The translations under genes and the position numbers were made by a program. The notes below the pieces were generated by a model. That model had not been told where the DNA came from. It worked only from the letters and a program-made list of their open reading frames with translations, and did no database searches. A DNA stretch of 63,665 nucleotides, filler included, from Hausera hauseri (taxonomy: Eukaryota), in assembly GCA_046269625.1 (NCBI GenBank). It is 10 parts of 10 records of this genome, joined end to end, with 100 filler letters (N's around TTAATTAATTAA, not from the genome) between each part and the next. Parts side by side here need not be neighbours in the genome. Positions count along the whole stretch, not along the records: positions 1 to 16,765 come from JBJURY010255513.1; 9 more parts are not named here. One strand, written 5' to 3'. Shown in pieces: positions 118 to 57,020 of the stretch (its first letter is position 1; every line of letters begins with the position of its first letter).

Positions 118-1641
118 TCAGTCATCGTCATCAACATCCACTGAAGTGGGGAGAGGGGCAATGAAAGCTGAAGGTGGCGGGTGTGCACTGAGAGGGAGGT
201 CGAACCAATTAACTGGGGGCGGAATGAAATTTGCAAGGTGTGGGTGAATCTGGGCAGCCGCTGGTGTCCAGATAGTGTCCAATTTGTTAAGACGAGATAA
301 GTGACGGAATAAGTCAAAAACATCATTGAGCATATTGGTGTAATTCAAAGTTCCAATAGAACGAATACGATTTATGCGGCATGCATCACGATAAGAAACA
401 AAACCCCATGGGCCTCTTTGTAATTCGATACTTCCCAGTATATCGTCATAACTTTGAGCAAAGCAGGCTAAGAACTGAGCAACGTCAAAAGTAACTAAGA
501 CACGTCCATAAGTGCATCGAGCCACATGCAACATGACTAGGTTGAAATCTGGAGCCGAGTCGAGCATTTGGAGGGAAATGCCATGAATGTGAGATTCGAC
601 ATTAGACAAACGCACTCGTGGGTTAATGAGTGTGGTATAACGCTGTATTAAGGAGTCGTTCTGAATTTCCCCCAGGCTTACTCCGATACATATTTTAATA
701 GCTCCAGAAAGAGCGGTTGTAAATCCCACGAGGAGGAGATCAGAATCTACTGGTTGTCTAGCTAACCTCATGAAAGAAGAAGAGTTCAATTCAGGAGGTG
801 GCAAGGGTAGTAAAGAACAATCCATCGTACGAGTTGTACCATTAGAGGACTGGGACCAATAATCGAGCCAAGGTGACGGAATAGTGTGTTCAATTTCAAT
901 CATAATAGTTGTGGGTACCGTGACAATTTGTATTTTCGGACCCATGTTATTCCATACCGATCGGGAAAAACGGATTGAGGCATACTGAGGAATAGGAATA
1001 TCAAATTCATCTGTTTGACGTGACCACTGAAACTTGAGTTGACCTTCAGCCACAGACAAAAGAGTATCATGAAGGGTATATTGTAAGTCCGGTTGTTCAA
1101 TCAAATCCTCAACAAAGGTTCGAAGTGGTAGTGTACCTTTGTGTCGAAAGCGGTTGATTATAATTGATCTATTTTGGAGGCTATTACCCTTTAACCAATT
1201 AGGTAATGAGAACGGTGTTTTGTAGCACACGGTAGGGTGGACTAGAGAATTGGCCTTAATGGATTTATATGCATTGTTAGAGCGGGCTATTTCTTGAATT
1301 TCGGATGGAGATTGCATATTAGCGATTTGTATCGGCAACCCGGGAAGACTGCGTAGGTGAAGACTCTGGGCTGTATTATCCACAAAACGTAAGGAGAATT
1401 CATCTGGCTGCGATGTTTCAATGTTAGATGATTGTGCTGGTCTGCCATCGGCGGGTATCTCGTCACCCAGGCCGTATAAGAAATTCACGGCATTGGGTGT
1501 TGCTGTATTGCCCGATGAGGGGATGACTGTTTTTCGCCCACGTAACCAAGTTAAATAAGTTGGCTCGGCCACTGAAGGTAAGGAAGAATAAGAAAAATTC
1601 GCCACAGCCATGCAGCTCGCAGCTGTAGCCAAAAGTAACCG
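118..1641 (-). CDS. ORF4, accessory protein with a degenerate DnaQ/DEDDh exonuclease-like domain; in frame with pol after one TGA
   Basis: 504+ codon ORF. The segment RYTTLINP...IHGISLQMLDSAPDF...GRVLV resembles the DnaQ-family F.TLINP...IHGIT.EML..AP.F...VLVAHN motif. Confidence 0.65.
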   Translation of the reverse strand, partial: RLLLATAASCMAVANFSYSSLPSVAEPTYLTWLRGRKTVIPSSGNTATPNAVNFLYGLGDEIPADGRPAQSSNIETSQPDEFSLRFVDNTAQSLHLRSLPGLPIQIANMQSPSEIQEIARSNNAYKSIKANSLVHPTVCYKTPFSLPNWLKGNSLQNRSIIINRFRHKGTLPLRTFVEDLIEQPDLQYTLHDTLLSVAEGQLKFQWSRQTDEFDIPIPQYASIRFSRSVWNNMGPKIQIVTVPTTIMIEIEHTIPSPWLDYWSQSSNGTTRTMDCSLLPLPPPELNSSSFMRLARQPVDSDLLLVGFTTALSGAIKICIGVSLGEIQNDSLIQRYTTLINPRVRLSNVESHIHGISLQMLDSAPDFNLVMLHVARCTYGRVLVTFDVAQFLACFAQSYDDILGSIELQRGPWGFVSYRDACRINRIRSIGTLNYTNMLNDVFDLFRHLSRLNKLDTIWTPAAAQIHPHLANFIPPPVNWFDLPLSAHPPPSAFIAPLPTSVDVDDDD

Positions 1642-4600
1642 TCATAATATTACCTCATAGTTTAGGTCATAAGTTTGACATCTGGGGTTTCGCATATGAG
1701 TTTTAGTATTCTTACTGTTGATTGTAAGATTTTCATACATACTTCCAATTTCTCTATCTGTATTTGGGGGGTGTTTTTGGAGCCAAAGAATAAGGACAGA
1801 AACTAAGACGACCGATCCTATAACGACTAGAAGAGCAATAATCAAGGAGTATACAACAAAACTGTCAACAGACATTTCCGTTACGGTTTCAATTGAAGGG
1901 GCCATACTTATAACATGGCGAAAACCATGAAGGTTCATTGAATCAGTCAATGTCTTGCACGGTAAGGGAGTCGTTCGTTGAGAAACGGAAGGATACTGTT
2001 TTTGTTCACTTTTGAATACAGGCGTTGCGCGAATTTGAAAATATCGTTGGGTAGTCGACAGGGCAGAGGTTATGATGTTATCACGTAATGACATTAGCAC
2101 AGGAAATTGCAGGATGGCGTTAAGTAACAAAAAATTGTTAAAACCAGGTACAGTAAAGCTTAGTTTCACTTTATCCTTACTGATATTTGATACCATAGTA
2201 CTATAATTGGTTTTAATAAGGATGTTATTGGAGGTGAGGTGCTTTACGTTAATATTAGCTGGAGTAAGGCATAATATTTTCAATGCTCTGTGATGTGACC
2301 CTATTACTACTGTGGTCAGATCCAACTTCTGTCTTATAGCAATCCAAGGGATTGTATAAATTTCCTTTAATTTATTGTCGAATGTTGTTGCTACTCCTTC
2401 CCACAAGTACTCTCCGGATATTTTTAACGGCTTGGCTGGAGCTTGGATCCATTGGAAAGTCAAATATCGATGTGCATAACTTACGTGGCAATTTAGTTGC
2501 AACCATACAGCTTCACTGTAATTAAATTCTTGGTGATCTATTCTAAGGGGTTCAAGGGCCTCCCCAAGCCTACTAATTGAGAGTGGGCAAATTTGTCCTA
2601 TTGAAACAGCCCGTAATTGTAGCCCCCTATGTTTTTCACACCAGAATAGTAAAACTGGGATTTCCCTGTGATATATAAATGTCGGTGCCTTCAGCAATTC
2701 GGAGTTCCATCTACTGATTTGTGTACTATTAACCCATTCTTCAATTACTTGCTGTAAGGCTTCTTCGTCCGAATGTACATAGTAGCAGTGGCCTCCTGGT
2801 GACTTAAACATACAATGGAATCGTTGGTAGCGGTGACGGCCTTGTACCAAAAAGATATTGACCTTAATGTTGTGAAGGAAGTCCGACACAAAGGTATATA
2901 AACGTAATTCATTCCTTTGCTTTGTCCATCCCCATTGAATTTTTATTCCGTGTGATAAAGATAATAAGCATAGCAATAAACAAAACATGTACAATATAGA
3001 AAACTTCGGCACGCCTAGATTTGTTGGAGCTAACTCGTTCCTGGTCTGGTTAATGCCAACATCCTGAGGTATTACCGTAACTAATTGTGTAGGGGCCTTT
3101 TTGCACCGATCTGCTGCTACAGTTATGATTTCGTCTCGCTTCCCGATTTTTTTTCGTATAAAAATGTTCGTTTCTGTAACATTTTCCACTTTATAGGGAC
3201 CTTTCCACGGGCGAGCTAATTTTGGTGACTTACCTTTTTTTACTGCAGGTTCCAAAAGCATCACGAAATCGCCTTGTTTGATTGAGTGAGGACGTGCCTT
3301 TTTATCGTAATTTCCCTTATATGTTTTCTGATAATCAAGTGTTAACGATTGTGCTAAGGCCCATGCTTTCGTCAATCGTTCCTTCAAATAGTTTACATAG
3401 TTCGGTTCATGTTTTGCCAGGGTCTCATCTGGAATTATTTCTAAATCCTTCGGCAGAAGTGGGTCACGCCCATACATAAGGAAGAATGGTGGTTGCTGTG
3501 TTGCCGAGTGTGGCGCAGTTCGCAAGGCGAACATACAAGCTGGGATGAACAAATCCCAGTCATCTTGTCTATCGTCCGTTACCGTAGCCAACATTGATAA
3601 TAATGTGCCATTTAATTTCTCGACCATACCATCACAGCAAGGGTGATAAGCAGCTGTTTTAAGCTTATATATAGAGAACAATCGGCAAACCTCTTGGAAC
3701 ATTTTATTTATAAATTCCGTTCCTTGATCTGTTAATATTTTCCTGGGAGCACCGTACCTGAACACTATTTCCTCGACAAATAATGCTGCAACAGTAAAAG
3801 CTGATTTATCAGCCATTGGAAATGCCTCTGGGAATCTAGTCAAGTAATCTACAAACACCAATATGTATTGGTTCCCGCTCTGCGTCTTCGGTAACGGTCC
3901 GATTATATCCATCGCTGAAAATTCCATGGGACTCGCTGGTGGTGGTATCGGATGCAACGGAGGTTTACATCGGTATCCCCTATTTCGTCTGGTCGCACAG
4001 ATCTTACAGCTTGCACACCATTGTTCGACATCCTTTTGAATTGTGCGCCAGTAATATTTTCGTTTAATTCTACCCAATGTCTTCTTATATGCAGGATGCC
4101 CTGCTAATAATCCGTCATGTTCTTGTTGCATAATGTCGTGTCGCCTAGATTCTGGTATCACTACCAACTGCCGATCATTGTACCAATAGCGTAATAATTC
4201 AGATGCAATAAGGTATTTTGCACCTTGACTTACCAAGTGTTGTATTAGTTCTTTATGAGAGGTATTAATTTTTCGTGTTCGCACAAATTCTCTGATTACT
4301 CTCAATTCCGCATCTTGCTCTTGTTGGTTAATCAGCATCTGAATTTCATCATCTGGGATATGTGCCGTAGTTATCTGGAAGGTCATTAATTGTGATATGT
4401 GTTTTGATTCACATCCTTCCTCCAAGCATTCTAGCTCTCGTTTAGTAGCGGGTCTACGTGACAACCCGTCCGCATTTTTATTATTTCTACCAGGCCGATA
4501 AAACACAGTTAAATTGTATGCTTGCAATTTTAGTTGCCACCGTTTTAGTCTTGAGTACGGATCTTTTACTGTTGAAAACTCTAACGGTGCATGATCTGTG

Positions 4601-6909
4601 AAGACTTTCACTTCATGACCCCATACGTAATATCGGAATTTTTCAATTGCAAAGACAATAGCCAACATTTCCTTTTCTATTACAGCATATTTTTGTTCAG
4701 TTTCCGACAAGGTTCTGCTTGCATACGCAATTACGTATTCCCATTTTGAGTCTGGTGGCATTTGTGATAACACAGCTCCCAATCCAGTGTTACTTGCGTC
4801 TGTAAATATAATGAATGGCAAGGAAAAGTCTGGATATCTGAGTATTGGTGCTGAAGACAACAGTTTCTTTAGTGTGTCAAATGATTCCTGGGTTTCTATC
4901 GTCCATAGGAATTTAGTTCCTTCATGCGTTAACGCAAATAATGGAGCTGCTATTGTACTAAAGTTTGGAACATGTTTTCTATAATAACCACACGTACCCA
5001 AAAACGCGCGTAGCTCTGTTATATTCTTCGGTATAGGCCATGCTGTGATGGCGGACACTTTTTCTGGGTTTACTTCTATGCCCTCAGCTGAAACAATGTG
5101 TCCAAGAAAAACAACTTTCAACATTGCAAATACACATTTCTTAAGTTTCAATTTGAATCCCCAAATTTCTAGTAAATCAAGAATTCTTTCGATATCATCT
5201 AGATGTTCGTCCAAGGTTCGTGAAAATATCACGATATCATCAATATAAACCATTGCGTGCGTACAGTCTAGCAGCATTGCCTCTAAGGCTTCTTGAAACG
5301 TTGAAGGTGCGTTACATAATCCAAAGGGCATTACATTGAACTCATATTGGCCTTTACCGGCGGAAAATGCTGTCTTATATTTATCCTCCTCAGCCAGTGG
5401 TACTTGCCAATACCCACTTTGCATGTCCATCGTTGTAAAATATTTGGAGCCTCGTAGTTTATCAAATATATCTTCCTGTAGTGGGAGTGGATATGAGTTC
5501 TTTACTGTTTGACTATTTAACTGTTGGAAATCCACACAAATTCTGGCTCCCCCGTCCTTTTTTGCTGCTACTACAATTGGCGATAGCCATGAAGAATTAC
5601 TTTTTCTGATGACATCATTTTCTAACATTTGTTGTAATTGACGGTTAACTTCTTCTTGCAGTGCATGTGGGATGCGATATGGTCGTTGCTTAATTGGCCT
5701 TTCATTTAATAAAGGGATGTGATGGACTACGCGGTCGGTTTTACCCAGGTCTGCATCTGATTTAGCAAAGGCCCTTAGGTGCCTTTTAAGAACACACAAC
5801 AGACGTATTTTATCTTTTCCAATTAAATCGGTTTTTATACTGTCCGCCTCTTCGAACGTGCTGATGCATTCTTCGGGCTGAATGATGTGCGATATTGCAC
5901 ATAACTGTCCAATAGTTGTATTTTGTCTGAGTACAACCGCTTGTCTATCGGTATTTACTACTCGAACTGGCAAATAGCCATCTTTAATGGGACTAATACT
6001 GCACGCTGCTTTTATTCCAAGCCTCCTATTTGAGGTTACATCAGGTTCGAATAGCATAGTTCCATTTACCATGTTTGGTGCATAACCTTGTATAATGTGT
6101 TCACTTGTGGGTTCCAATATGATTCCTTCTGGTACAATAACTACTTCCTTCCGGAATTTTACCGCTGGTATCGCGAGCTGTCCTGTAGCTAGGTTCAGAT
6201 ATCGTCCTGTACATTTACGTTGTAAATCAAGTCCCACAATTACATCCTCAACTAACTTATCGAATACTTTGAATGTGTGCTTCAGGCGTTTATTATAAAG
6301 TATTATATAAGTCGTCCAATAACCTACTGGCATTAATTTGTCGCCCCATCCTGATACAGTTGCTCGGTCCTCTTTCTTGGGGGGGGGCAGTTCAGATCTG
6401 TATCTCTCTGGTATACTCGATAATAACACTATTGAATCGTCACAACCAGTATCCACTAGAGCCACAACGTCCCAATCTTCGTGAATGGTTACTAAAGTAT
6501 ATGGCCTTTTCGTGTCCATCTTACTTTTACTAGATCGAAATGCACAGAAGTTACTAAAACTTGGTACTCTTACGTTCATGTTTTCGATTTCTGTATCCGA
6601 ATTTTCCTCATCTTCTGGCTTTATTTCGGTGATAGGTAATCTACTTGGTGTGACGATTTTTATGCCTTTCAACTGTTGTCGTAACTCTCGGTATTTAATA
6701 TATTTAGCTTTGCTACCGCTATATAACGCATCTAATTGATCATCTTTTAACTTCTCCAGACCATCTTTATCTGTTACGGGTAACTTGGGCAACGGTCTTC
6801 CCTGATTCCTAGGTTTGATTTGGTGCAGTCGAGTACAACTATTAATTTTATTGTCTCGTTCCTCACTCCTAGAATTCTTTATCCACCCCCATACATTTTT
6901 TTGGGTATT
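1642..6909 (-). CDS. pol: Pol polyprotein (aspartic protease, RT, RNase H, integrase) with in-frame C-terminal type I membrane protein extension
   Basis: ALVDTG; YIDD; TDAS...EKEMLA...TDH; HHCC; MDIIGP/TDQG/VEKLN; WKGPY. Then the signal-like FSILYMFCLLLCLLSLSHG and TM FVVYSLIIALLVVIGSVVLVSVLILWL. The frame is open from 6909. Confidence 0.93.
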   Translation of the reverse strand, partial: NTQKNVWGWIKNSRSEERDNKINSCTRLHQIKPRNQGRPLPKLPVTDKDGLEKLKDDQLDALYSGSKAKYIKYRELRQQLKGIKIVTPSRLPITEIKPEDEENSDTEIENMNVRVPSFSNFCAFRSSKSKMDTKRPYTLVTIHEDWDVVALVDTGCDDSIVLLSSIPERYRSELPPPKKEDRATVSGWGDKLMPVGYWTTYIILYNKRLKHTFKVFDKLVEDVIVGLDLQRKCTGRYLNLATGQLAIPAVKFRKEVVIVPEGIILEPTSEHIIQGYAPNMVNGTMLFEPDVTSNRRLGIKAACSISPIKDGYLPVRVVNTDRQAVVLRQNTTIGQLCAISHIIQPEECISTFEEADSIKTDLIGKDKIRLLCVLKRHLRAFAKSDADLGKTDRVVHHIPLLNERPIKQRPYRIPHALQEEVNRQLQQMLENDVIRKSNSSWLSPIVVAAKKDGGARICVDFQQLNSQTVKNSYPLPLQEDIFDKLRGSKYFTTMDMQSGYWQVPLAEEDKYKTAFSAGKGQYEFNVMPFGLCNAPSTFQEALEAMLLDCTHAMVYIDDIVIFSRTLDEHLDDIERILDLLEIWGFKLKLKKCVFAMLKVVFLGHIVSAEGIEVNPEKVSAITAWPIPKNITELRAFLGTCGYYRKHVPNFSTIAAPLFALTHEGTKFLWTIETQESFDTLKKLLSSAPILRYPDFSLPFIIFTDASNTGLGAVLSQMPPDSKWEYVIAYASRTLSETEQKYAVIEKEMLAIVFAIEKFRYYVWGHEVKVFTDHAPLEFSTVKDPYSRLKRWQLKLQAYNLTVFYRPGRNNKNADGLSRRPATKRELECLEEGCESKHISQLMTFQITTAHIPDDEIQMLINQQEQDAELRVIREFVRTRKINTSHKELIQHLVSQGAKYLIASELLRYWYNDRQLVVIPESRRHDIMQQEHDGLLAGHPAYKKTLGRIKRKYYWRTIQKDVEQWCASCKICATRRNRGYRCKPPLHPIPPPASPMEFSAMDIIGPLPKTQSGNQYILVFVDYLTRFPEAFPMADKSAFTVAALFVEEIVFRYGAPRKILTDQGTEFINKMFQEVCRLFSIYKLKTAAYHPCCDGMVEKLNGTLLSMLATVTDDRQDDWDLFIPACMFALRTAPHSATQQPPFFLMYGRDPLLPKDLEIIPDETLAKHEPNYVNYLKERLTKAWALAQSLTLDYQKTYKGNYDKKARPHSIKQGDFVMLLEPAVKKGKSPKLARPWKGPYKVENVTETNIFIRKKIGKRDEIITVAADRCKKAPTQLVTVIPQDVGINQTRNELAPTNLGVPKFSILYMFCLLLCLLSLSHGIKIQWGWTKQRNELRLYTFVSDFLHNIKVNIFLVQGRHRYQRFHCMFKSPGGHCYYVHSDEEALQQVIEEWVNSTQISRWNSELLKAPTFIYHREIPVLLFWCEKHRGLQLRAVSIGQICPLSISRLGEALEPLRIDHQEFNYSEAVWLQLNCHVSYAHRYLTFQWIQAPAKPLKISGEYLWEGVATTFDNKLKEIYTIPWIAIRQKLDLTTVVIGSHHRALKILCLTPANINVKHLTSNNILIKTNYSTMVSNISKDKVKLSFTVPGFNNFLLLNAILQFPVLMSLRDNIITSALSTTQRYFQIRATPVFKSEQKQYPSVSQRTTPLPCKTLTDSMNLHGFRHVISMAPSIETVTEMSVDSFVVYSLIIALLVVIGSVVLVSVLILWLQKHPPNTDREIGSMYENLTINSKNTKTHMRNPRCQTYDLNYEVIL

Positions 6910-9530
6910 TTACTACTTTTTATTTTTCGTTGCTTTGACCATTTGGATCCATAAACGCTCACTCTATCTGCTCCTCCACCACCATAATCTTCGTCTCGCT
7001 TTTCTCTCTCCCTCATCCACTGGGCCATAAATGCATGTTGTAAGCATCTGGCTAACGGCGGACAAAGTGCTGTTAGTATTTTCTTGGAACAACCAAAAAG
7101 TTGGAAATTTATAAATCCATTAGTTATTTGTGCGATTATCGTTCGTAGAATTTGCACTATGAAGTAAATAGCTAGAAATCCAGATGACACTTGTCCAAAC
7201 GTCATCATTCCCCCCCATAACTTTTTGAATATCGTCTTAGCTGCCTTGGTAAAATGATCCGGGCTTAAGATGTTTTCCCAGTTTGTTTTTCCATTTCCTG
7301 TATCAGTAACTTTCTGTGTATATGACACTATAAGCCTTTGTAATTGTTTCGGAAACAATAAGTATCTTCTTAATTTTTCCATACTAGCCTCATCGTACAA
7401 ACCTCCTTGAAAAAAATTAACATTATTGTCGAACTTCAATTGTTGTTTTAATGCCAGCATTGTCAGTTTCTTGGGAGTTATTATTTTCGTTCTTGACGGC
7501 ATCGTAACCCAGTGATCATGTCCAATCTTAAACAGTGGTGCAACGTTTCTTATGCACTCCTTTAATACCGTTGGATCTTCGGTTGGTATCAACATTACTC
7601 TCGTTATTGGTGCTACGTATCTTATGTGCCCATTATATTTTACGGCTATTTCATTGGTACATATCGTAGTATCTACCACTGGTACGTCAACTTCCCGACA
7701 CTGAAAGGTTACTAACCCTTCTCCAGTAGTTCTACCGAATACTCCTCGTTGTTTTGTTGGTAGGATTGGGGTATCTATCGAAGGGTTATGGGCTGCTACT
7801 GTGACTCGTAATGCCAATAGATCCTGTGTTATCAAGCAGTCGTTTTGGAGCATTTCCTTGTATATTTTATACTGATTATTGAGCATATAGTGGAACAGAT
7901 AATCCATTTTACCGTTGTAATATACCATTGGTTTAATCTCAGTTGGGTGCACTTGTTTTTGCGCATCTACTACTTCTGTTGTCTTAAGGTATATATCTTC
8001 GACGTTAGTAGAATATACCTCTGTTTTACATTTGATCACTATTTGTTTTCTTATCAATCGTATTGCATCATCGACTGTTGACATTAGGACTGCCGGTGTC
8101 TCAATCTCTGTTAACCGTTGTACGTCCGTATCCTCAGTGTGCGTCGGTGTTGGCTTTGAAAATCTAACACCTTTTGTAATATTGAACGTTACAGCTTTAA
8201 TGAAGGCTAGATTACAGGTTATAACTTCCACGTTCCAGGTAATTATCGAATCTGTGGTAAAACAATACCCATTACCATATACACAGTCCATCCGAATCAT
8301 TAGTTTCAATGTGTCAGCGTCAAACGTAATTTCTTTATCGGTAACTGTCCATGCATACAGATTTTGTACCACTATCCGTGATACTTCATCCACAGTTTGT
8401 CCTGTACATGTCCCGTCTTTACCTACCATACCTCCTTCATTTATTGTTAGGTATTTAATACCATTAACTATTGTTGTTATTTCTACCTTGTCGTTTACCT
8501 TCAACTTACCCAGTCTCACAGCCTCTTTGCAATCGTCCGGCAGCACTCTCTGGGGCTCATCTGGTGACGCTATTAATAGGTTCGTTGAGTGAGTATGGGC
8601 TTTGCCACAATGCCATTTTTTTGTTTGTTTCGTCAATTTACATTCCAACGCTCTTACTCGAAAAAATTTATTTTCCTGATATATATAATATTTTGTTGAT
8701 GGTTCTGTTATCAGTTTGTCCGGTTCGGCATCAGGGCATTTCTCTAGATCAACTAAGGAGTACGTGGCTCCTACTTCTGGTTTATCGCAATCAAATGCCT
8801 TGATCCCCTGCCCTTGAGGTAGACGCCATAAAACTAACATAATTAACAAGACACTCATCATTCCTTCCAAATTCAATCGTGGCGCATTATCCAATATTTC
8901 CTCAAAACCTTTTATTATTTGTAGAAAACCCTTTTCCATGTTATAGGGATTTTTAACGGGCCGACCTTGCTTTTGCTGGTATCCTCGTTCTGCTGGTTGT
9001 GGGATATGATTAAGGTCCAACAATTTGTCCCACCCACCAAATCGCTGTGCTCCCCCGGATAAATTATTCTTTGCAATCTCCATCGCAATCTCGTTATTAT
9101 TTTCAAAGTCCTCTTGCTTTTCACTTGACATCTGTACTCTCATTGCTAAATATACGAGGATTGCGATCATACGGTCCTTCGACACTGCTCCATCCTGCAT
9201 CCATTTTTGAATTATCTCACTATCCTTTAACGGATCGATTGAACTTGGTAATTCTTCCTTCGTTATTGCTTTTTCCATTTGCTGCAATACTTGTTTAAGG
9301 TGCCCTTCAATACCATGATCACCTTCTTTTTCCTCCTCTTGTGACCAAGGTTTGTCATCATCCTTGTATAAGATTTTATAAATTTTATAAAAAGTTTGTT
9401 TAATTTGTCTACTCTCCGGATATAAATTATTCGTCTCGGTCGTACGCAAAGCTCGGGTTAGTGTGTCAACACTAATTTGTTCTATTAGATTTTTTTTGGT
9501 CTCCCTCTTGGTTTCTTTCTTATCTGGGCT
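6879..9530 (-). CDS. env: Envelope glycoprotein, chuvirus/gB-like (class III-type), preceded by a ~200 aa helical leader and internal signal sequence
   Basis: Hydrophobic MMSVLLIMLVLW is followed by GIKAFDC...TYSLVDLEKC, a Cys-rich ectodomain (DGTC, QNDC, FQC, TICTNEI), GGLY, and the TM region GQVSSGFLAIYFIVQILRTII. The frame is open from 9530. Confidence 0.8.
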   Translation of the reverse strand, partial: SPDKKETKRETKKNLIEQISVDTLTRALRTTETNNLYPESRQIKQTFYKIYKILYKDDDKPWSQEEEKEGDHGIEGHLKQVLQQMEKAITKEELPSSIDPLKDSEIIQKWMQDGAVSKDRMIAILVYLAMRVQMSSEKQEDFENNNEIAMEIAKNNLSGGAQRFGGWDKLLDLNHIPQPAERGYQQKQGRPVKNPYNMEKGFLQIIKGFEEILDNAPRLNLEGMMSVLLIMLVLWRLPQGQGIKAFDCDKPEVGATYSLVDLEKCPDAEPDKLITEPSTKYYIYQENKFFRVRALECKLTKQTKKWHCGKAHTHSTNLLIASPDEPQRVLPDDCKEAVRLGKLKVNDKVEITTIVNGIKYLTINEGGMVGKDGTCTGQTVDEVSRIVVQNLYAWTVTDKEITFDADTLKLMIRMDCVYGNGYCFTTDSIITWNVEVITCNLAFIKAVTFNITKGVRFSKPTPTHTEDTDVQRLTEIETPAVLMSTVDDAIRLIRKQIVIKCKTEVYSTNVEDIYLKTTEVVDAQKQVHPTEIKPMVYYNGKMDYLFHYMLNNQYKIYKEMLQNDCLITQDLLALRVTVAAHNPSIDTPILPTKQRGVFGRTTGEGLVTFQCREVDVPVVDTTICTNEIAVKYNGHIRYVAPITRVMLIPTEDPTVLKECIRNVAPLFKIGHDHWVTMPSRTKIITPKKLTMLALKQQLKFDNNVNFFQGGLYDEASMEKLRRYLLFPKQLQRLIVSYTQKVTDTGNGKTNWENILSPDHFTKAAKTIFKKLWGGMMTFGQVSSGFLAIYFIVQILRTIIAQITNGFINFQLFGCSKKILTALCPPLARCLQHAFMAQWMREREKRDEDYGGGGADRVSVYGSKWSKQRKIKSSKIPKKMYGGG

Positions 9531-11983
9531 TCAGTATTTCGTTGCATCGTTCCTTTGGGCAGTACTTCGTCACCTAGTTCTGGTACTTCTGCAAATACCC
9601 ATAACGGTTCCGGTATCTCCTTTAATTGATTAATCGAATTATCTGAACCTGACTTGAGGGGCCGGATGTATTCTGTTGCACCCAATACCTTATTTATTTG
9701 TCGTTCCAATTTGTGTTGATCATCGTCCCTTTTCCTTTGGGATTCCTCAAGATATATTTCAACAATTTCGTTAGGATCCATTCCAGACATAACTCCTAAT
9801 TCCGTCCATTTTATATCTAAGTCATTTACTTGACGCCCCATGAACCTAATAGTAATAACAATATCCTCGTCATTACAACGCCACTGATTTTCAGGTAACA
9901 ATATCTTTAATATCTTCTGTATCGGTGCCTCAGGGTCTATCATAGCTTGTGTTTCAGTGTATACCTTTCCGTCAATTATCCTAAATTGAAGCAAAATGTC
10001 ACCTTCCTCTTTTTGAGGCTTAAAGCCTTCCTTTTGAGCGAATATTTGCAATATCAACCGTGCCATATCTCTTCGCGGAGCTCCATCTGCCGCTTGGGCT
10101 ATGAGATATTTTCTAACTTTGATAATCCGTGTTTTATGCTCGGTTATCCACTCACGGAGTTCATACATTTGATCCATTATTGTTGGTGTTACATCATTGG
10201 TTGGGTCGTTCTCTATTTTCTCGAGTAATGCCCTGAACTGTTCTTCGTGGTAGTCGATTTCATTTGCATTATCTGGCTCTTCAGCAGTTGCTGGAGGCGT
10301 TGTTACTTCATAATCTTCTAGTATCATTATAGGTATATCTTTATCTTTTTCACCTTCCTCCCTTGTTTTGGTTAGTACGTCTGTATTGTTATCGTTTAGC
10401 GGTGCTATCTGATTAAGGTGTAGCGATTTCAATCTTTCAAACTGGGTTCGCATATCATCAAGTTCCAATTTGTGTTGTTTCATTTGAAAAATCATTTCTT
10501 CCCGTGTTAAAGACATATCTTCTGTCTCAGGGGATACAGAGATTATACCTTCCTCCCGGAGACCTTGTGAACTATTAGTATGTGCTATCTGATTAGTCGC
10601 ATCCATTTCTTCATGCATCTGATAGCAATTCGTGTCATCCATTGGATTAAATGATGCACTTGCATCATACACAGAGTGCATCAGTGCCATGCTAGTCGGA
10701 TTAATATTGCCATACCTTATCGGGCACTTCTTTGCCAGATGTCCTGCTTGGCCACAATTGAAACAGTTCTTAGGTTGCGATACACCAAAATTTTGTTGCG
10801 TTGCAGGCTGTATCAAGCCTTGTTGTTGCTGTATGGGACATGTTTTTGCTGTATGTCCCCTTTGGCCACAAGCGTAGCATTGCTTCGGAGATTGTGCATG
10901 TGGCGGAGTGGTAAACGGCATTTGTGCCATATATGGGCATGACTTCGCCAGGTGTCCAAAGTTTTTACAATTATGGCACTGTATAAGCCCTTTTGCATTG
11001 ATATTATCGTGTTCGAGTATGGTTGTTTGGTTTCTGTTACCTGTGGATCGTAATGAATACGGCATAGTTTTGGCAGAACTTCCCATTGGCGCGACCTGCA
11101 ATCGATTGACTGCAGCACCGGTTGACATAGCATTTGATCCTGTTGGTTGTCGTACATTGCCGCCGTCTGTTGGGGACGTTTGTCGTTGTATTGGTGGTTG
11201 ATGTGGACGCACTCCGAGTCCCATATTCCATTGAGGCCTAGTGTATACCATTGGATGCCTCGGTGGTCGCAACCATTGTTGTTGCGGCCATCCTTTTCCA
11301 AGGTCCACGTGTTTGTTCCATGTGTTACGACCTGTTGGTTGGTTAATATTAAATGTTGATGACTGAGTAATTTGCGCATGAGGTATAGACGGTGACGTAT
11401 CTTGATGTAATAAACCTCTCTGTAATATTTGTGACATTTTAACATCGACATTTTCATGAGCTATAGCCTTTTTAACTAATTCACTAAATGTCGTGGCCTC
11501 ACTCTCGATTAAATGTCGCTGTACTTTGGGGTTTCGTAAACCCGTTATGAAGCAATCCACAAGAATAGGCTCTGTTTCAAAAACCTTCTTGTCGTCGGCT
11601 TTTTTATCTCTATTCTCGTTTTCCAGCGCGACTTTATATCGTTTTGCTAAAGCTTGTAAGGCTAGAGCGAACATATTCACGGATTCTCCCGCATGCTGCA
11701 CGCGTGATCGTAAATGTCTTAATCGGGCATTGGACGAAGGGTCCGGATCGACACATTTTCTCAATCTTTCAACTATTTCCTTCCATGGTTTATCCGCCTT
11801 GTCTATCTGAAGGTATGCCTGCAGTGCCACACCTTCCAAGTACCCTACCAATTTCTTTACTTTCTCTTTATCATCCCAGTCGACGCTATCCGCCTGTGCT
11901 TCATACATAGTAATGAAGTCGTCAAAGGCGGCCGGCTCACCGGCATATCTATTAATATTTAAGCCTGCATATAATTGCGCCAT
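9485..11983 (-). CDS. gag: Gag with capsid-like N-terminus, 3 CCHC zinc knuckles, SUMO/ubiquitin-like domain and C-terminal AT-hook
   Basis: Retrotransposon-gag N-terminus (WDDKEKVKKLVGYLEGVAL; QHAGESVNMFALAL). Knuckles CHNCKNFGHLAKSC, CYACGQRGHTAKTC and CFNCGQAGHLAKKC. Ends RKKPRGRPKK. Confidence 0.9.
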   Translation of the reverse strand: MAQLYAGLNINRYAGEPAAFDDFITMYEAQADSVDWDDKEKVKKLVGYLEGVALQAYLQIDKADKPWKEIVERLRKCVDPDPSSNARLRHLRSRVQHAGESVNMFALALQALAKRYKVALENENRDKKADDKKVFETEPILVDCFITGLRNPKVQRHLIESEATTFSELVKKAIAHENVDVKMSQILQRGLLHQDTSPSIPHAQITQSSTFNINQPTGRNTWNKHVDLGKGWPQQQWLRPPRHPMVYTRPQWNMGLGVRPHQPPIQRQTSPTDGGNVRQPTGSNAMSTGAAVNRLQVAPMGSSAKTMPYSLRSTGNRNQTTILEHDNINAKGLIQCHNCKNFGHLAKSCPYMAQMPFTTPPHAQSPKQCYACGQRGHTAKTCPIQQQQGLIQPATQQNFGVSQPKNCFNCGQAGHLAKKCPIRYGNINPTSMALMHSVYDASASFNPMDDTNCYQMHEEMDATNQIAHTNSSQGLREEGIISVSPETEDMSLTREEMIFQMKQHKLELDDMRTQFERLKSLHLNQIAPLNDNNTDVLTKTREEGEKDKDIPIMILEDYEVTTPPATAEEPDNANEIDYHEEQFRALLEKIENDPTNDVTPTIMDQMYELREWITEHKTRIIKVRKYLIAQAADGAPRRDMARLILQIFAQKEGFKPQKEEGDILLQFRIIDGKVYTETQAMIDPEAPIQKILKILLPENQWRCNDEDIVITIRFMGRQVNDLDIKWTELGVMSGMDPNEIVEIYLEESQRKRDDDQHKLERQINKVLGATEYIRPLKSGSDNSINQLKEIPEPLWVFAEVPELGDEVLPKGTMQRNTEAQIRKKPRGRPKKI

Positions 11984-12108
11984 TTAATGTCTGCAATCTC
12001 GTGCTTCACGTCGTATTTCAAAAAGTCAAACAACAAGAATAGTTATATAAAGGGATAAAGATCAAAACAACTGATTTAACAAAAATAATTCAAAAGGAAC
12101 AGATTAGT

Positions 12109-12121
12109 GGCGTGGTCGCCA
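12109..12121 (-). promoter_or_regulatory. Primer binding site, probably tRNA-Arg
   Basis: Minus-strand TGGCGACCACGCC lies between the LTR end and gag. It is complementary to a ...CGUGGUCGCCA tRNA 3' end, as in animal tRNA-Arg(UCG) isodecoders. Confidence 0.7.
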
Positions 12122-12125
12122 GATT

Positions 12126-12680
12126 TGTTGTGGCCCCTTGCCTAATAAAAGCTCTCTGTATTTTACTTGATTATCTATTTATTTATTACTTTGGAGACTT
12201 CCCCAATTAAATGCCCGTCTACCCTACTGTTTATGGTGCCCTCAAGATCACTGGGCTTGTCCCAAAGATCGTGGTTACTTTTAACCCTAACCTCAGTCCC
12301 TCTTTAGTTTTACCTCAGTAGCCACTGAGCTAACTCTCAAAAGCTACACTCGTTAGTTAAAGTAATGGGTCGCAGTAATTATACTCAAATTAAAAAAAAT
12401 AGGTAGTATGGCGGCTACAAACAAACAAAAAAAACAAAAAGAACATACTTTATTACAAGCCAAACCGTTCAAATCATTTTGTCAATAAAGTTTTTTTTGT
12501 CAGTCCCCAGATGCAGTTTATATAATACTGACATCGTGGGATTAAATTACAAAAATCAGCCAATGATTCAACAAATAATGACAGAGTGTCACAAAAATTG
12601 TTACACAAAATCAATCATACACCCGTATTACTACGGCTAATTGTTACACCAGTTGCCGAAAAAGAATACAATTTGTTACA
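12126..12680 (-). repeat. Putative 5' LTR
   Basis: The minus strand ends ...CCACAACA 4 nt before the PBS. It contains TATATAAA (~12516-12523) upstream of AATAAA (~12448-12453). Candidate start TGTAACAA at 12680, with alternatives near 12605 and 12648. No second LTR is available to confirm the boundaries. Confidence 0.55.
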
Positions 12681-14762
12681 TCTGTGTAACCTGATCCTTT
12701 AGCGGCTCAACAATTTTATGCCAAATTTATCAAATTAATCATTATTATTAATTAATCATTACTATATTTAAGTATAAAAAATGTAAACATTCATTGTCTA
12801 ATTGGACACAAAAAGTGGCCCTACGTATTTATCATTTGCAATTTGTACAGCTATACGCGGAACAGTGCTTCAAACGTTAGGGGTTTGTATTTGAAAAATG
12901 AATTTCCAATCGGTTAAAACAGACTTTCAATTGTAAATTTCCGTCGCCATTTCTTTTTGGATTTGAAGTAAAATGTATCAGATGAATAAATAATTTTTGA
13001 ATGAACGAGTAATTATCAACAGTTCCTGTGAAAACCAGAATATATTAAATCCGTTTGGAAACGTAACAGATAATCAATTTAAAAAACTTGACATCCTTTG
13101 TTGTAAATATATAATTGCAAAACAATCCATTTGTAATTTTTAATACATTCGTTTGTTACTCCGTGTGTTTCAAAAAATTTGGAAAAATCTCTGATTGAAA
13201 ACTGTAAACTTTTTATGGCAAGTTCAACTCGTATAGAAAAGATGATTTGGTCGAGAATATGCTCAATGATTTATGTTTTTATGATTTACTAATTTTATGT
13301 TGATGATGAAGATTTTCCTTCTGATGAAGGTGAATATATTGTACAATTTATAGTGATTTGTTCCATTGCAATGGATTTGATTATCACAATTAAGTAAATA
13401 TTAGAAATGTTAAAATTTCGAAATAAATTTTCTGTTAATTATCTCGAGATTTTTGGTATACTTGTGGAATACTTACAGTTAATTTGATTAGTTATAGTTT
13501 TGGAGTATGTTTATATTAAGGAATTGTAAAAAATTGTACAACTTACTGATGTAAGGATATGTAATATTAATTATCTTTTGTATCTTACAAAGTATAGTAG
13601 AAATTTAACGTTAGAATAAATTTGATTTCTACCTTTGTCTTCAACAATTCCTGTGATGAAATTACATATTAAGATCAATATTAGAGAATCACATTTACTC
13701 TAAAATAGATGAAAAAATCATCATTATATTATAATTATAATTTTTTTTAAAATATAAACGCAAAATGAAAAATTTTAATATACAACGACATGGAATCATT
13801 AAAGTAGACTTAGAATTTCAGTGTTTTGTTGTTTCTTTGTAATATTAGTTCTGTTTTACAAAGAACAATCATAATTTGTGACAAACCATAAATGTTCATT
13901 GTGATTTATTAAAAATATAGCCATAATTTTAGCTGCAGTCATTCACTTAAGTTGGGGGGATGGGCTATGTCGGACAAATTCTACCCCACCCAATTAAAGT
14001 CACAATGTTAAGGTCATTTAAAGTCAGGATTAAGGTCATCTTTTTATATGAGCAAAAAGGTTATAAACAAATTCTGAAAATAAGAAAAAACATTCAAATA
14101 AATAAAACGGATGAAATAATCTCCGTCTTGTTCTACTTTATTATCTGGTGTTGAAATAAAGGTAATGCTTAAGGTTTATTTTTAATTAGCTTAGAATTGG
14201 TTTTTGTGCGTTTATTGGTTTCATTGTGCCGTGATTCCTTATTCTGTCGAAATTTTGTAACATACTCAGTGTAGTGTGACGCTCGTCATAAGGATTTTTG
14301 ATTACGGAAGGAAAAAAATATCCATAAGAAGTAGAACGTTTATTTGTTTTTCGTTCTTTGACGTTTCTATTGTGAAAGACGATGCCGAACGCCTTCTTTG
14401 AGCTCTTTGGCCTACCACCGATCTCTGAGATTGTCCTCCGAAGTATACTCGATGGTTGGAGATCCGTTGACTACCTGATGGCCTTAATGACTCAAAGAGT
14501 CAATTATGGCTGCCATCAACCTGATTAAAACAGCTATGAATCCTTATGAGTCAAATATACGCCTGTTTTTACCGCTTGAGTAAAACTCATAGAGACGCTG
14601 ACTGGGTAAGGCCTATGGTTTCTGTGTGGGTTATGTGTCATACAAAGCGGCTGTGCTGCAGATCTCTCGAGACATACTAAAGTCGGAATACAATCGTCCT
14701 GGGATGGTTCGTAGGAATGACATGTTGCGGCATCTTAGCTATTCAGAACTCTGAAGATTGGG

Positions 14763-15263
14763 CTAAGCGGTGTTTAACAGGACCATGTACTCATGGAGGT
14801 TGTCGACCAAGCAATTCGCTCTCGAATGAATCATTGGTCGTCGTGGTGTTCGCGGACGTTGGTGTCCCAGTAACAGAGCCGTGGCTCTCACTACAAGAGG
14901 ACCGTCGTGTGTGACGATTTGGGACTTTGTGTTACGATAGCTTTGTCTCTTGGTTTCCTCTTCAGACATTGAGGACTCCCTGGGAGACCCCATTTTGTTG
15001 GAAGGTAGAGTCCTGTATTGGAATGTACTTTCCTCCTCATCGGAGTCAATTCGATATCCCGGTTTTTCATGCAACATGTAAGGGCACTCTCCTCCGATAA
15101 GCTTACAAGATGAACAACCAATTTTGGATCGTTTGCTGCCTCCGACGGGTTGCTCTTTTCGTTGATTCGTTATCTCGATTCCCAATACCTCTAGCTCCTC
15201 AAGATCAATCCCGTCTTTACGGCTTGTTTCTTTTAGGTTATTGCATGCGCAGTAATGAGCCAA
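14763..15263 (-). CDS. Hypothetical Cys-containing ORF in a GC-richer island (14.33-15.4 kb), probably element-derived
   Basis: 166 aa ORF with HYCAC and CSSC...C...H. Local GC is higher than the flanks. No recognisable family. Confidence 0.2.
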   Translation of the reverse strand: MAHYCACNNLKETSRKDGIDLEELEVLGIEITNQRKEQPVGGSKRSKIGCSSCKLIGGECPYMLHEKPGYRIDSDEEESTFQYRTLPSNKMGSPRESSMSEEETKRQSYRNTKSQIVTHDGPLVVRATALLLGHQRPRTPRRPMIHSRANCLVDNLHEYMVLLNTA

Positions 15264-16339
15264 GTAAATCCTACCAATAGTCCTCGCATTGGAGTGAATT
15301 TCGTTTTTTCAACCTTGGTGATCCTGGTTTTCTCTTTCTGTGGCCATTGCCTCGTTTCTAGGTAGTCACAGTAGTTAAAAAAGGAGGCTTGTAGACCGGC
15401 CCCTCAAATTAAAAAAATTTTCATTCGCTTGCCTCACCACCACTCGCTCATAATAATTTTTTTAAAAAATTTCAAAAACATACATATAATACTCCTTTTA
15501 TAACTACTCCCAATATTCAATTATAAAAATATACAAAAAAATGATTTCAAATAATTCTGATTGTAAATTCTGTGAAACAGGTCGTATAATAATATAAATA
15601 ACTTGACTGTACTGATAAATTTAGAATTTTAGTCAGAGATTGTAAATAAATTTAAAATTTTTCTTACTAATTATTGGAATAACTCCAGTTGTTTATAAAA
15701 CCCATGGCTGACAAATGATTATAAAATAGTTATAATGCGAATGATTAAAGAAGAATGTGAAATAAATTTAGAATTTCTGTAAATCAACTAACAAGTTACG
15801 GATCTGCTACTATATAATCAGACTATGGACAAATCAAAACTGAACAAGATGTGAACAAGTATTAGTTGTTGACTTTAGAGTCTAAAGTTAAAGCATCAAA
15901 TCTATTAACTGACGATATTTCTTTTGCACTTGATTTCTGTGAAGTGCTGTTTTCCTTGGTTGATTAATAAAGGTGATTTTTTATTATTTGCGTTGTTAAT
16001 ACCCCTCATATAGTTTCTCATAGTCTCTTAAAGACGATTAGACTGCAGTAGGGGTAAAATTAATACTAAAATATATAGCTAAGACAAGAGATTAAGTAAA
16101 GTGATACATTCACTTCTCGCAGTCAGTACAAGCATCACTGTATAATATATATTAAAATCTTAAGGTACAAGCAGACTATTCGAGAACGAATAGTCCTAAC
16201 CTGCTTATAGAAGGAATAAATTCAAGTGAAAATATTGTTATAGAGGGAGACGATAAGGGCCACCCCAACTGTAACACTAGTTACTGTGTTTAAATGCACT
16301 TCATTTGAATATGCTTTGTTTTCAATTTTAGAAATAATG

Positions 16340-16765
16340 ACATTAAACCAAAGTATTAGAAAGTTGATTAGTTCTTGGTTTGAGCAAGGTTTTGATGCAC
16401 CGAAAATCTGCAGCATATTGAAACCGCAGGCATCAAAGGCTGCAATTTATAGGTGAATCAATCGCATTGGAAAATCTGGAATATCAGCTAATACTAGCCC
16501 CAAACGGCCGAGAAGCGTGCGAACAAAGGCATTCATAGCCAAAGTCAAACGAAACGTCCTTTCCAACAAGAAGCGCAAGTCGGCCCGGAAAATCGCTAGT
16601 GAAGCATGTTGTTCAGCTTGGACCGTTCAAAATACAATTCGTATGGACTTATATTTAAAAGCATATAAAAATTCGTATTTCCGCTTTAACCAGTGCCCAT
16701 GACGCACGAAGAAAGTAATTCTCTCACTGGATCACTTGTTCTGTCAGAAACTTTGATTTCTGCCG
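16340..16765 (+). pseudogene. Tc1/mariner-superfamily transposase remnant (HTH region)
   Basis: RPRSVRT...VKRNV...RKSARKIA...TVQNTIRMDLYLKAYK, flanked by stops and frameshifts. Confidence 0.65.
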
Positions 16766-25976: not shown

Positions 25977-26961
25977 ATGGCCAACCGAACTGTTCGAGAT
26001 GCTCATACAATTCATGGAAAAAATCCCCAAAATTTAATTGAAAAGGTTATTAGAACTCGGATATATGATTCTAGATATTGGAAAGAAGAATGTTTAGCAC
26101 TTACATGTAAGTTGTAAGTTTTTTGTTATTTTTTATTTAAATTTTGCTTTAGCTGAACTCTTAGTTGATAAAGCTTGTGAATTAAAATATATTGGCGGTG
26201 TTTTTGGTGGAACCAATACTCCAACTCCATTCTTGTGTTTATTGCAAAAGCTACTTCAGATCCAACCAGATAAAGATATTGCAATCGAATTTATCAAACG
26301 GAATGAGTTTAAATATTGTCGAGCATTAGGAGTCATGTATTTGCGTATCACCGGAAATGCTGTAGTAATTTACAAATATTTGGAAACGTTATATAATGAC
26401 TATTCCAAGTTGAAGAGGCAAGATCAAGACGAAAAGTTCACGATTACCCACATGGATGAATTTATCGACGAATTGTTGAGAGAAGATCGAGTCTGCAGTA
26501 TTGTTTTGCCGAGATTACCAAAACGAGATGTTCTCGAAGGGTCTAATGAACTCGAGCCAAGAGTTTCAATACTCGACGAAGATTTGCAAGATCTAATGTT
26601 ACAAGTCGTTGAAGAAGAAGAAGAAAAAGAGGAAATGAGAAAACGATCAGACAAAATTACGGCTAAGGAAGAAGTCAGTCGACGAAAACGAAGCCGTTCA
26701 AGAAGTCGGGATAGACGAAAATCAAGAAGTCGTTCACGAAGCCGAGGGAGATCTCGTTCACGTGGTAGATCACGATAGAGATCGAAAGACCGTGCTCGTA
26801 GACGTTCGCCGAGACGTGATCATAAAGATCGTAAACATGATAAACGGGAGCGTTCTCGCGATAGATCAAGAGAACGAAGATACGACAGAGAATCGTCACA
26901 AGATCGCAATAAAAGAAAAAGTGATCGAAAAGACTATGATAAACATAAGGACAGATATTAA
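25977..26961 (+). CDS. PRP38: Pre-mRNA splicing factor PRP38 (PRPF38A-like); exons 25977-26106 and 26153-26778, or to 26961 if the TAG is bypassed
   Basis: MANRTVRDAHTIHGKNPQNLIEKVIRTRIYDSRYWKEEC; PTPFLCLLQKLLQIQP; HMDEFIDELL; RS tail; 46-nt GT-AG intron. Confidence 0.93.
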
Positions 26962-38621: not shown

Positions 38622-38721
38622 NNNNNNNNNNNNNNNNNNNNNNNNNNNNNNNNNNNNNNNNNNNNTTAATTAATTAANNNNNNNNNNNNNNNNNNNNNNN
38701 NNNNNNNNNNNNNNNNNNNNN

Positions 38722-42635: not shown

Positions 42636-42639
42636 GCAG

Positions 42640-56800: not shown

Positions 56801-57020
56801 TTCTAGTGAACTAATCTATCGAAAGTTGTGAGAAAATGGGGAGTCAGTCTCACTCCCTCCCACCGAGGGGGGCGGGGATAATCAATAAATCTATTTTACT
56901 CATGTGCCAATCAATAGTGCACATGGTGCAATATCGATTTGTAGTGTGTTAGGTAACCGTGCCGTTAAGCACCGTTGCTAAGCACATTTTTGCACATTTC
57001 ATAAATCGATCGCTGCATAG
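53874..57020. repeat. Long imperfect inverted repeats (53874-~54025 and ~56868-57020) bracketing about 2.8 kb
   Basis: ctgtgcagcgatc...cttagcaacggtgc is the reverse complement of gcaccgttgctaag...gatcgctgcatag. Confidence 0.6.
55335..56134 (-). mobile_element. Mariner-type element remnant with one TIR
   Basis: EQRMNIKFCFKLGKSATKTYEMIKSAYG...RRMTIGMIAESL...KTMLITFFDKRGII. The minus strand starts with TIR-like TACAGTGTGTTCAAAAAG. Confidence 0.8.

Follow-up and report, generated by a model that had tools for sequence, protein, structure and literature searches.

The envelope gene lies between gag and pol in the planarian retroelement Burro/GYPSM1 (PMC6431247), and GAG-ENV-POL errantiviruses with gB-type envelopes have been published from flatworms, bryozoans, and nematodes (PMC13524379). 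Such elements are abundant and PIWI-controlled in planarians (PMC8532177). As described, Burro/GYPSM1 encodes three CCHC knuckles, a ubiquitin-like domain, a BCL2-like domain, a mononegavirus-like envelope, and protease, reverse transcriptase, RNase H, and integrase (PR-RT-RH-IN), together with accessory ORFs (PMC6431247).

We analyzed a 63,665-nt stretch of DNA (the window) that consists of contigs joined by N spacers. Its first contig (positions 1-16765) holds an element of ~12.5 kb with an internal region of ~12 kb. An ORF scan found four minus-strand ORFs, all free of internal stops as the initial annotation had stated: gag, env, pol, and ORF4 (Table 1). Gag, env, and pol are uninterrupted and stand in the gag-env-pol order by which PMC13524379 recognizes errantiviruses, and PR-RT-RH-IN follow in gypsy order with their catalytic motifs present, as judged by Pfam and motif reading. 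We assign a probability of about 0.8 to the reading that this is a Ty3/gypsy LTR retrotransposon with a gB/chuvirus-type envelope and the published GAG-ENV-POL layout, and that it is a compact relative of Burro.

The Burro/GYPSM1 order of gag knuckles, ubiquitin-like domain, BCL2-like domain, env, and PR is matched in the window, with weak support for the BCL2-like member. In contrast, Burro/GYPSM1 exceeds 30 kb and is encoded in one 4,873-aa ORF (PMC6431247), whereas the window element uses three frames and lacks a single polyprotein of ~5,000 aa; four of its relatives (P0021, P0122, L001, and L003) encode gag-env-pol-signal-TM as single ORFs of 2,694 to 3,735 aa. No Pfam match to MATH, BIR, ankyrin, or dUTPase domains was obtained in the window, and two relatives (P0030 and P0048) carry ankyrins. 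The portion of PMC6431247 consulted makes no mention of an exonuclease, of readthrough, or of a membrane protein after integrase. The initial annotation had regarded the architecture as undescribed; the order is already in the two papers above, and with its headline layout known the element does not represent a new class among endogenous retroviruses.

Boundaries and encoded proteins

Upstream of gag, the LTR had been drawn to position 12680, but the termini in the sequence make 12126-12533 more likely. At the 3′ side the contig ends 117 nt past ORF4, before any 3′ LTR or TSD. No tRNA gene was found in the window. When contigs of a sequencing run (X1) were compared with the window, one of depth 107 connected position 1 with 12540, as expected if a second LTR followed, and depth was ~18 at 12638, beyond the proposed LTR edge. 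Run X1 may come from the source sample itself. Over the element, X1 contig depth was 85-102 versus 18-19 in the flank, where contig depth is not to be equated with copy number, and the contigs carried 0-1 substitutions per 0.9-2.9 kb. These near-identical contigs agree with the recent activity suggested initially, and the element is likely young and multi-copy. Contigs from X2 and X3 were of low depth and uninformative, with 14 substitutions in the env ORF (6 synonymous and 8 not). The host is probably a flatworm.

Table 1. Features of the element, in positions of the window
Feature	Position	Strand	Description
Probable 5′ LTR	12126..12533	-	TGT...ACA termini, ~408 nt; upstream edge tentative
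Primer-binding-site-like sequence	12105..12121	-	starts TGG, 4 nt after LTR
gag ORF, 832 aa	9485..11983	-	capsid (~aa 8-177), 3 CCHC knuckles, long spacer, ubiquitin-like domain, terminal RGRP basic motif
Ubiquitin-like domain, gag tail	9740..10006	-	four-sequence profile A5 matches ubiquitin, ISG15, NEDD8; best single-domain E 0.0016
A8 run in 45-nt gag/env overlap	9490..9497	-	-1 frame relation; fits A_AAA_AAA slippery heptamer
env ORF, 883 aa between stops	6879..9530	-	Bcl-2-like block, internal signal/anchor, gB/chuvirus-type fusion ectodomain, TM, tail
Bcl-2-like helical domain	9009..9482	-	BH1-/BH2-like motifs; weak but consistent support
Predicted internal signal/anchor before glycoprotein	8805..8876	-	hydropathy
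Class III-type (HSV gB/chuvirus G-like) fusion glycoprotein	7125..8804	-	PF24664; C-terminal TM 7125-7190
A7 run in 30-nt env/pol overlap	6896..6902	-	-1 frame relation; env frame lacks a canonical heptamer
pol ORF, 1755 aa	1642..6909	-	open reading frame
pol core	3670..6510	-	PR (DTG), RT (YIDD), RNase H, integrase with zinc finger and D-D-E core motifs
Predicted type I membrane protein 3′ of integrase	1645..3018	-	signal 2950-3018, ~370-aa luminal part, TM 1774-1845, tail
Candidate readthrough signal	1598..1647	-	TTA-TGA-CGG-TTA, hairpin from +13
Splice-acceptor-like polypyrimidine tract and CAG	1572..1594	-	18/20 pyrimidines; rival route to ORF4
ORF4, 507 aa, in frame with pol	118..1641	-	N-terminal domain and degenerate ISG20/REX4-like DEDDh exonuclease domain (~277-780)

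The three CCHC knuckles of Gag were called by Pfam. The first ~220 residues of the env ORF are not glycoprotein and hold a block that resembles Bcl-2. Profile A2 found Bcl-xL as its best match in the PDB (E 0.04), and Foldseek with the AF2 model of the block (pLDDT 61) returned Bcl-2 family members in all rows shown (best E 0.11, none ≤0.001). The block received no Pfam call and no usable ESM Atlas match, and a single-sequence search of the PDB did not recover Bcl-2. Its boundaries were picked with Bcl-2 in mind, significance was never reached, and a Bcl-2-like domain before env is a weakly supported prediction. Neither this domain nor the ubiquitin-like one appeared in the initial annotation.

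The chuvirus/gB-like identity first proposed for Env was confirmed by Pfam, where PF24664 (Monjiviricetes fusion glycoprotein) matched env aa 227-843 with E 5e-68; hydropathy placed hydrophobic segments at aa 219-237 and 781-802, flanking the ectodomain. The glycoprotein ORF does sit between gag and pol as annotated, but it is 883 rather than 856 aa long, and the range 6879-8810 given for it corresponds to the mature glycoprotein and not to the whole ORF. Env profile A4 had no sequence match in the PDB, and an env search for longer proteins was blank despite existing relatives, a failure of sensitivity.

A second membrane protein, also noticed at the outset, is predicted after integrase from a signal and a TM (hydrophobic segments at pol aa 1298-1316 and 1689-1707), and a signal-plus-TM protein stands at this place across the clade. 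Its luminal domain had no Pfam call and no Atlas match at 0.9 or above, and could not be aligned with the repeats of the relatives; RAG1-like Atlas matches, at 0.81 or below, were set aside as noise. A search of 1.84 billion representatives gave one weak homologue of the protein, P0121 (E 9e-4). The tail contains tyrosine and ends Y-E-V-I-L, which is PDZ-ligand-like, and from its sequence it is predicted to bind host PDZ scaffolds. Tails ending in V, L, or I were found in 10/11 clade members versus 10/112 other pol proteins, and tails ending [ST]x[VLI] in 6/11 versus 0/112, although the clade tails form groups of relatives, and the window tail ends in a motif that is only class II-like. This count leaves out P0125, which ends at the TM, and the cluster duplicates P0029 and P0043, and includes P0048, which is absent from the tree. 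ITIM-like YxxL motifs, a lead only, occur in the tails of the window element and of five other tail-bearing relatives.

The four hydrophobic segments alternate such that Pol would fall on the cytosolic side, and a membrane-threaded polyprotein is likely made. Gag and the ubiquitin-like and Bcl-2-like domains would be cytosolic, the internal signal would place the fusion ectodomain on the lumenal side of the ER, and from there the env TM would bring the chain back to the cytosol for PR-RT-RH-IN. The second signal and TM would then yield, upon cleavage, a separate surface protein with its putative PDZ-binding tail, and the element may be infectious.

Frame changes at two A-runs

In this copy, Env and Pol would be reachable from Gag only via -1 shifts at the A-runs, which may be programmed or may be lesions of some copies. 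One possibility, to which we give slightly less than an even chance, is that the two shifts are unprogrammed, being homopolymer slippage lesions or assembly errors, which would make this copy defective and a single Burro-like ORF the active form. The frame is continuous in 4/4 clade relatives at gag/env and in 6/6 at env/pol, although the protein database favors fused forms. Both breaks fall on runs, and there are only 8 runs of ≥7 nt in 12 kb. The length of the A7 run is variable among X1 contigs: three of them, with a summed depth of 60.5 versus 62.8 for the window form, differ in length at this position, and at least one of the three has a linked substitution. No stimulatory RNA structure was found after either A-run (z -0.25 and -0.87 for stable structure 3′ of the gag/env run).

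On the other hand, an X1 contig of depth 85 is identical to the window at the gag/env A8 run, with no variant listed, and a slippery heptamer fits the gag frame there. Every downstream frame is intact. X1 also deviates from the window at two other runs where homology favors the window, so X1 run lengths are unreliable; length differences among these contigs also occur at G/C runs within open frames.

Readthrough and splicing as possible routes to ORF4

Profile A3 matched ISG20L2 (E 4e-20) and ISG20 (6e-15) in the PDB. The link of the window ORF4 itself to the exonuclease family is weak, with E 0.003 to the L001 ORF and only 0.027 to RNase_T in Pfam. No homologues of ORF4 were found among 7,995 candidates, and a single-sequence AF2 model was unusable (pLDDT 31). 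On alignment, the four DEDDh acidic residues and the histidine are intact in the L001 and L002 ORFs and absent in those of the window, where the acidic ExoI and ExoII residues are missing, and of L003. The pseudo-exonuclease of the initial annotation holds as an ISG20-like domain without catalytic residues in the window and L003, and the ORF4 exonuclease is likely dead, to judge from these residues.

The 12-mer around the pol stop is identical at the pol stop of L003, and these were its only two occurrences in the sequences searched. Both degenerate exonucleases lie in frame behind a UGA-CGG-UUA stop context with a downstream hairpin. The fold z of the hairpin depends on the length folded: -2.3 and -2.2 at 60 and 100 nt and +0.05 at 150 nt in the window, and +0.9, -3.0, and -3.3 (60, 100, and 150 nt) in L003. 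UGA-CGG with an in-frame ORF occurs in 2/4 clade loci with DNA, for which chance would be ~1.5e-4 if the loci are independent. The type II readthrough signature consists of UGACGG and a stem at ~+9 to +16 (PMC13517186). Its components (UGA-CGG, in-frame ORF, and downstream structure) are all present here, with moderate support for the structure. Readthrough at UGA-CGG probably appends ORF4 to pol at a low rate, and a spliced RNA may be a further source of ORF4.

Another possibility, somewhat short of even odds in our estimate, is that ORF4 works as an accessory gene of its own, with expression through re-initiation or a spliced subgenomic RNA, and that UGA-CGG is inherited or a chance occurrence without function. 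A strong acceptor-like tract lies 70 nt past the stop, and L001, L002, and L003 likewise have acceptor-like sites ahead of their 3′ ORFs, so that all four loci do; a TAA stop sets the ORF apart in L001 and L002, and in the window a Met occurs 10 codons past the stop. However, the 12-mer is identical in two elements that share ~39% pol identity, are not sisters in the tree, and have unalignable tails, and both are open from the stop into the exonuclease, with a hairpin whose start lies at +11 to +13. An overlapping AUGA frame is open for ~60 codons in the window and 49 in L003; a mini-intron linking it to ORF4 was rejected on reading the sequence, as the phases do not fit.

Origin of the envelope and comparison with known systems

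In a FastTree phylogeny of 115 sequences, built from database matches alone, the window element is the first branch of a 13-sequence RT-RH-IN clade (support 0.992). No relatives were found among viral contigs or in prokaryote genomes. The initial annotation saw a lineage that had captured env independently and whose architecture was undescribed, a view that we now consider very unlikely. The early branching of the element would suit such a history, as would the description of GAG-ENV-POL elements as not monophyletic (PMC13524379) and an env that, by eye, is identical to none of the six Schmidtea rows (Smed_errantivirus_1-6) in the supplement of that paper. However, homologous envelopes, with 28-32% identity to that of the window, occupy the same place in six clade proteins or loci (P0043 and P0125 forming one cluster), and the Ubl-Bcl2-env-PR order is that of Burro (PMC6431247). 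By eye, moreover, the window env resembles the six Schmidtea rows, its eight cysteines in domains I-II correspond to theirs, and a TP-x-LMS-like motif is common to the window env and the Platyhelminthes C1a rows (PMC13524379).

X1 contigs matched the window with 0 differences across the gag/env junction (8660-9550) and with 1 difference across the pol tail, stop, and ORF4 (892-3758); at env/pol the contig that matches extends just 23 nt past the run on one side and is no formal bridge, and overlapping contigs tile across. A nested glycoprotein insertion or a misassembled contig is barely credible: the frame shifts coincide with both env boundaries and none of the run contigs covers the element in full, but env has no flanking repeats, X1 depth stays at 85-102 through env and its neighbors, the junctions are tiled or bridged, and the relatives have the identical order within one ORF.

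The open-licence PMC and bioRxiv texts searched gave no description of a post-integrase signal-plus-TM protein, an ISG20-like ORF, or UGA-CGG readthrough in such elements, and this accessory layer of second surface protein, exonuclease ORF, and readthrough context is apparently the undescribed part. We propose, as a model that we judge unlikely but worth stating, that Burro-like errantiviruses make an alphavirus/flavivirus-style threaded polyprotein with a second, fast-evolving surface protein bearing a PDZ motif. In some lineages, type II UGA-CGG readthrough would swap this motif for a dead ISG20-like nuclease that would bind RNA while tethered to the membrane and act as a decoy against host RNA defence, and here two successive -1 frameshifts would also set the Gag:Env:Pol ratios. 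If true, the PDZ-like tails across the clade, together with a nuclease that is intact where it stands apart but degenerate behind a readthrough signal, would mean that invertebrate retrotransposons use the recoding and host manipulation of complex viruses.

The nematode endogenous retroviruses of Sacco et al. 2022 reportedly have a continuous ORF and accessory cargo unlike that of the window. As cited in PMC13524379, they resemble our element in placing env before pol in a gypsy element, although by eye the nematode env rows in its supplement are unlike the window env. The Platyhelminthes C1a errantiviruses of the same paper share the gene order, a gB-type env between two hydrophobic segments, and signs of multiple copies; the main text does not contain the words “exonuclease” or “accessory”, and its ORF files or figures may contain such tails (PMC13524379). 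The bdelloid elements Juno and Vesta are likewise LTR elements with a captured 3′ exonuclease ORF, but their ORF3 is DEDDy and RNase D-like with intact residues, and they are described as lacking a bona fide env (PMC5408684); the exonuclease of the window is, in contrast, a degenerate DEDDh of the ISG20/REX4 type. Finally, VEEV and Colorado tick fever virus also combine UGA-CGG with a stem-loop, from ~+12 (PMC13517186), whereas here the candidate signal would join the tail of a membrane protein to a pseudo-nuclease in a retroelement.

Element anatomy and genomic setting

The initial annotation had described four uninterrupted ORFs, and all four were present on the minus strand without an internal stop (see the table). 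Pfam called three CCHC knuckles in gag, the Monjiviricetes fusion glycoprotein PF24664 in env (E 5e-68) and PR-RT-RH-IN in pol; its RNase_T match in ORF4 was weak (E 0.027).

Features of the element and of its surroundings in the window
Feature	Position	Strand	Remarks
gag ORF	11983-9485	minus	832 aa, open
env ORF	9530-6879	minus	883 aa stop to stop, open
pol ORF	6909-1642	minus	1755 aa, open
ORF4	1641-118	minus	507 aa, open
Probable 5' LTR	12126-12533	minus	TGT...ACA segment, then PBS-like site
GC-richer island, probably a decayed mobile element	14300-15400		short broken frames, one of them 181 aa long on the minus strand and without Pfam match
Broken Tc1/mariner-like transposase N-terminus	16300-16765	plus	HTH-like start, internal stop, cut by contig end; family by eye
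PRP38	26098-26775	plus	eukaryotic host-type gene, another contig
Pieces of a second degraded gypsy-like element	36377-40534	minus	another contig; RT match 38956-39570, E 1e-31
Primase large subunit	42568-43041	minus	eukaryotic host-type gene, another contig
Inverted repeat pair, possibly a DNA transposon remnant	53874-54021 / 56873-57020		148 nt, 75% complementary, 2.85 kb apart, contig start
FAF1/UBX	60010-60933	plus	eukaryotic host-type gene, another contig

The window consists of contigs linked by N spacers, and the element's contig stops 117 nt beyond ORF4. The stretch occurs in three sequencing runs, of which X1 may be the source sample. One X1 contig connects position 1 with 12540, the path expected of a 3' LTR. 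The high-depth X1 LTR path differs from the window LTR by four substitutions and three indels, and the window copy is therefore older or mosaic in its LTR. X1 contig depth was 85-102 over the element and 18-19 in the flank, with 0-1 substitutions per 0.9-2.9 kb relative to the window element. Depth and near-identity fit a handful of near-identical copies, contig depth not being copy number. The window repeat search found no repeats flanking env, and misassembly or a nested glycoprotein insertion is unlikely.

Relatives, accessory domains and the predicted second surface protein

Close relatives from a pol search and a metagenome scan (six loci, three inside the window's clade) showed about 43-47% identity. 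The window element branched first within a clade of 13 members (support 0.992) in a tree built from 115 RT-RH-IN sequences. In four of these relatives, the database proteins P0021 and P0122 and the loci L001 and L003, a single ORF of 2,694-3,735 aa covers gag, env and pol and ends in a signal-plus-TM protein. Env is therefore a trait of the clade, and the independent env capture proposed earlier is not supported.

The cargo of the relatives is modular. P0037 has a duplicated signal-luminal-TM cassette ahead of its protease (aa 45-232), integrase is followed in P0030 and P0048 by ankyrin repeats and additional protease-like domains, tandem protease-like domains stand ahead of RT in P0031 (aa 159-246) and L001 (5974-6595), and the P0125 tail carries an Ig domain. 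Outside the clade, P0095 encodes gag-dUTPase-env-pol in one ORF of 2,707 aa and is a separate GAG-ENV-POL lineage.

The gag tail contains a ubiquitin-like domain whose four-sequence profile matched ubiquitin, ISG15 and NEDD8 (best single-domain E 0.0016). A Bcl-2-like block of roughly 160 residues precedes the env signal; Pfam made no call for it. Its profile best matched Bcl-xL in the PDB (E 0.04, BH1 and BH2 aligned), and all Foldseek rows shown for its model (pLDDT 61) were Bcl-2 family, none significant.

Four hydrophobic segments alternate along gag-env-pol. Cytosolic Gag-Ubl-Bcl2 would be followed by a signal, a luminal fusion ectodomain, a TM and cytosolic Pol, and then by a signal, a luminal domain, a TM and a cytosolic tail. 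This inferred alternation would account for an env within a gag-pol polyprotein. Once the signal is cleaved, the Bcl-2-like domain would retain a membrane anchor; cellular Bcl-2 proteins possess one.

A terminal TM was found in all 11 complete clade tails examined and a clear signal-like segment in ten; P0038 has a weaker one (1.28). The luminal parts divide into unrelated groups; that of the window has one weak homologue, and neither Pfam nor ESM Atlas assigned it a fold. Tails ended in V/L/I in 10 of 11 clade members versus 10 of 112 control pol proteins, and in [ST]x[VLI] in 6 of 11 versus 0 of 112, where clade tails are partly related and controls include partial gene models. These endings resemble PDZ-ligand motif classes; the window tail, Y-E-V-I-L, is only class II-like.

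Frame junctions and possible access to ORF4

Homologous 3' ORFs occur in L001, L002 and L003 (E 1e-25 to 1e-6 among themselves, 0.003 to the window), and the four-sequence profile matched ISG20L2 (E 4e-20). In L001 and L002 the ORF is separate, beyond a TAA stop, and its DEDDh residues are intact. The ORFs of the window and of L003 are without these residues and lie in frame after the pol stop, behind TTA-TGA-CGG-TTA. Among the sequences searched, this 12-mer occurred only at those two pol stops; a type II readthrough context in two of four loci has a chance of about 1.5e-4 if independent, and the window and L003 are not sisters in the tree. Hairpins start at +13 in the window (z -2.3, -2.2 and +0.05 at 60, 100 and 150 nt) and at +11 in L003 (z +0.9, -3.0 and -3.3). 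In both, stop context and hairpin match the VEEV/CTFV pattern described in PMC13517186. We give predicted UGA-CGG readthrough into ORF4 a probability of roughly 55-60%. The rival to set against this stop context is that ORF4 would be reached by splicing or another separate route: at each of the four loci an acceptor-like site lies ahead of the 3' ORF. An overlapping AUGA frame, open for about 60 codons in the window and 49 in L003, also counts against readthrough.

L001 carries an additional 222-aa coiled-coil-like ORF (11375-12040, plus) between polyprotein and exonuclease, with an acceptor-like site ahead and no family assigned.

Upstream, both junctions are in a -1 relation, gag/env with a 45-nt overlap containing an A8 run and env/pol with a 30-nt overlap containing an A7 run, two of only eight runs of at least 7 nt in 12 kb. 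The A8 run fits a slippery heptamer, and an X1 contig matches the window there. The A7 run has no canonical heptamer; in X1 the window's form had depth 62.8 and three contigs of another run length summed to 60.5. No downstream RNA structure was found at either run (z -1.1 to +0.9). X1 contigs deviate also at two G/C runs within homologous open frames, so X1 run lengths are noisy. Programmed -1 frameshifting and copy-specific slippage are about equally likely.

Comparison with known elements

Exonuclease capture by LTR elements is known in rotifers, according to PMC5408684, although that exonuclease belongs to a different subfamily from ORF4. Neither readthrough into a dead nuclease nor PDZ-like tails were found described for such elements in searches covering open-licence PMC and bioRxiv papers. 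The accessory features predicted from sequence appear new relative to that literature.

The gag-env-pol order, initially proposed as a candidate new architecture, is not new: PMC6431247 and PMC13524379 already contain it, which refutes the initial claim by the test that it had set itself. The former describes the planarian Burro/GYPSM1, with three CCHC knuckles in Gag, Ubi/SUMO-like and BCL-2 domains, a mononegavirus-like env and PR-RT-RH-IN. It presents this element as the first example of an env in frame between gag and pol. The latter catalogues GAG-ENV-POL gB-type errantiviruses from Nematoda, Bryozoa and Platyhelminthes. By eye, the window env has a cysteine pattern and motifs in common with six Schmidtea rows of that catalogue, unlike the nematode rows compared. 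The host is presumably a flatworm. Because it differs from Burro in size and in single-ORF structure, the element is no Burro member; we file it as a GAG-ENV-POL gB-type errantivirus working like Burro.
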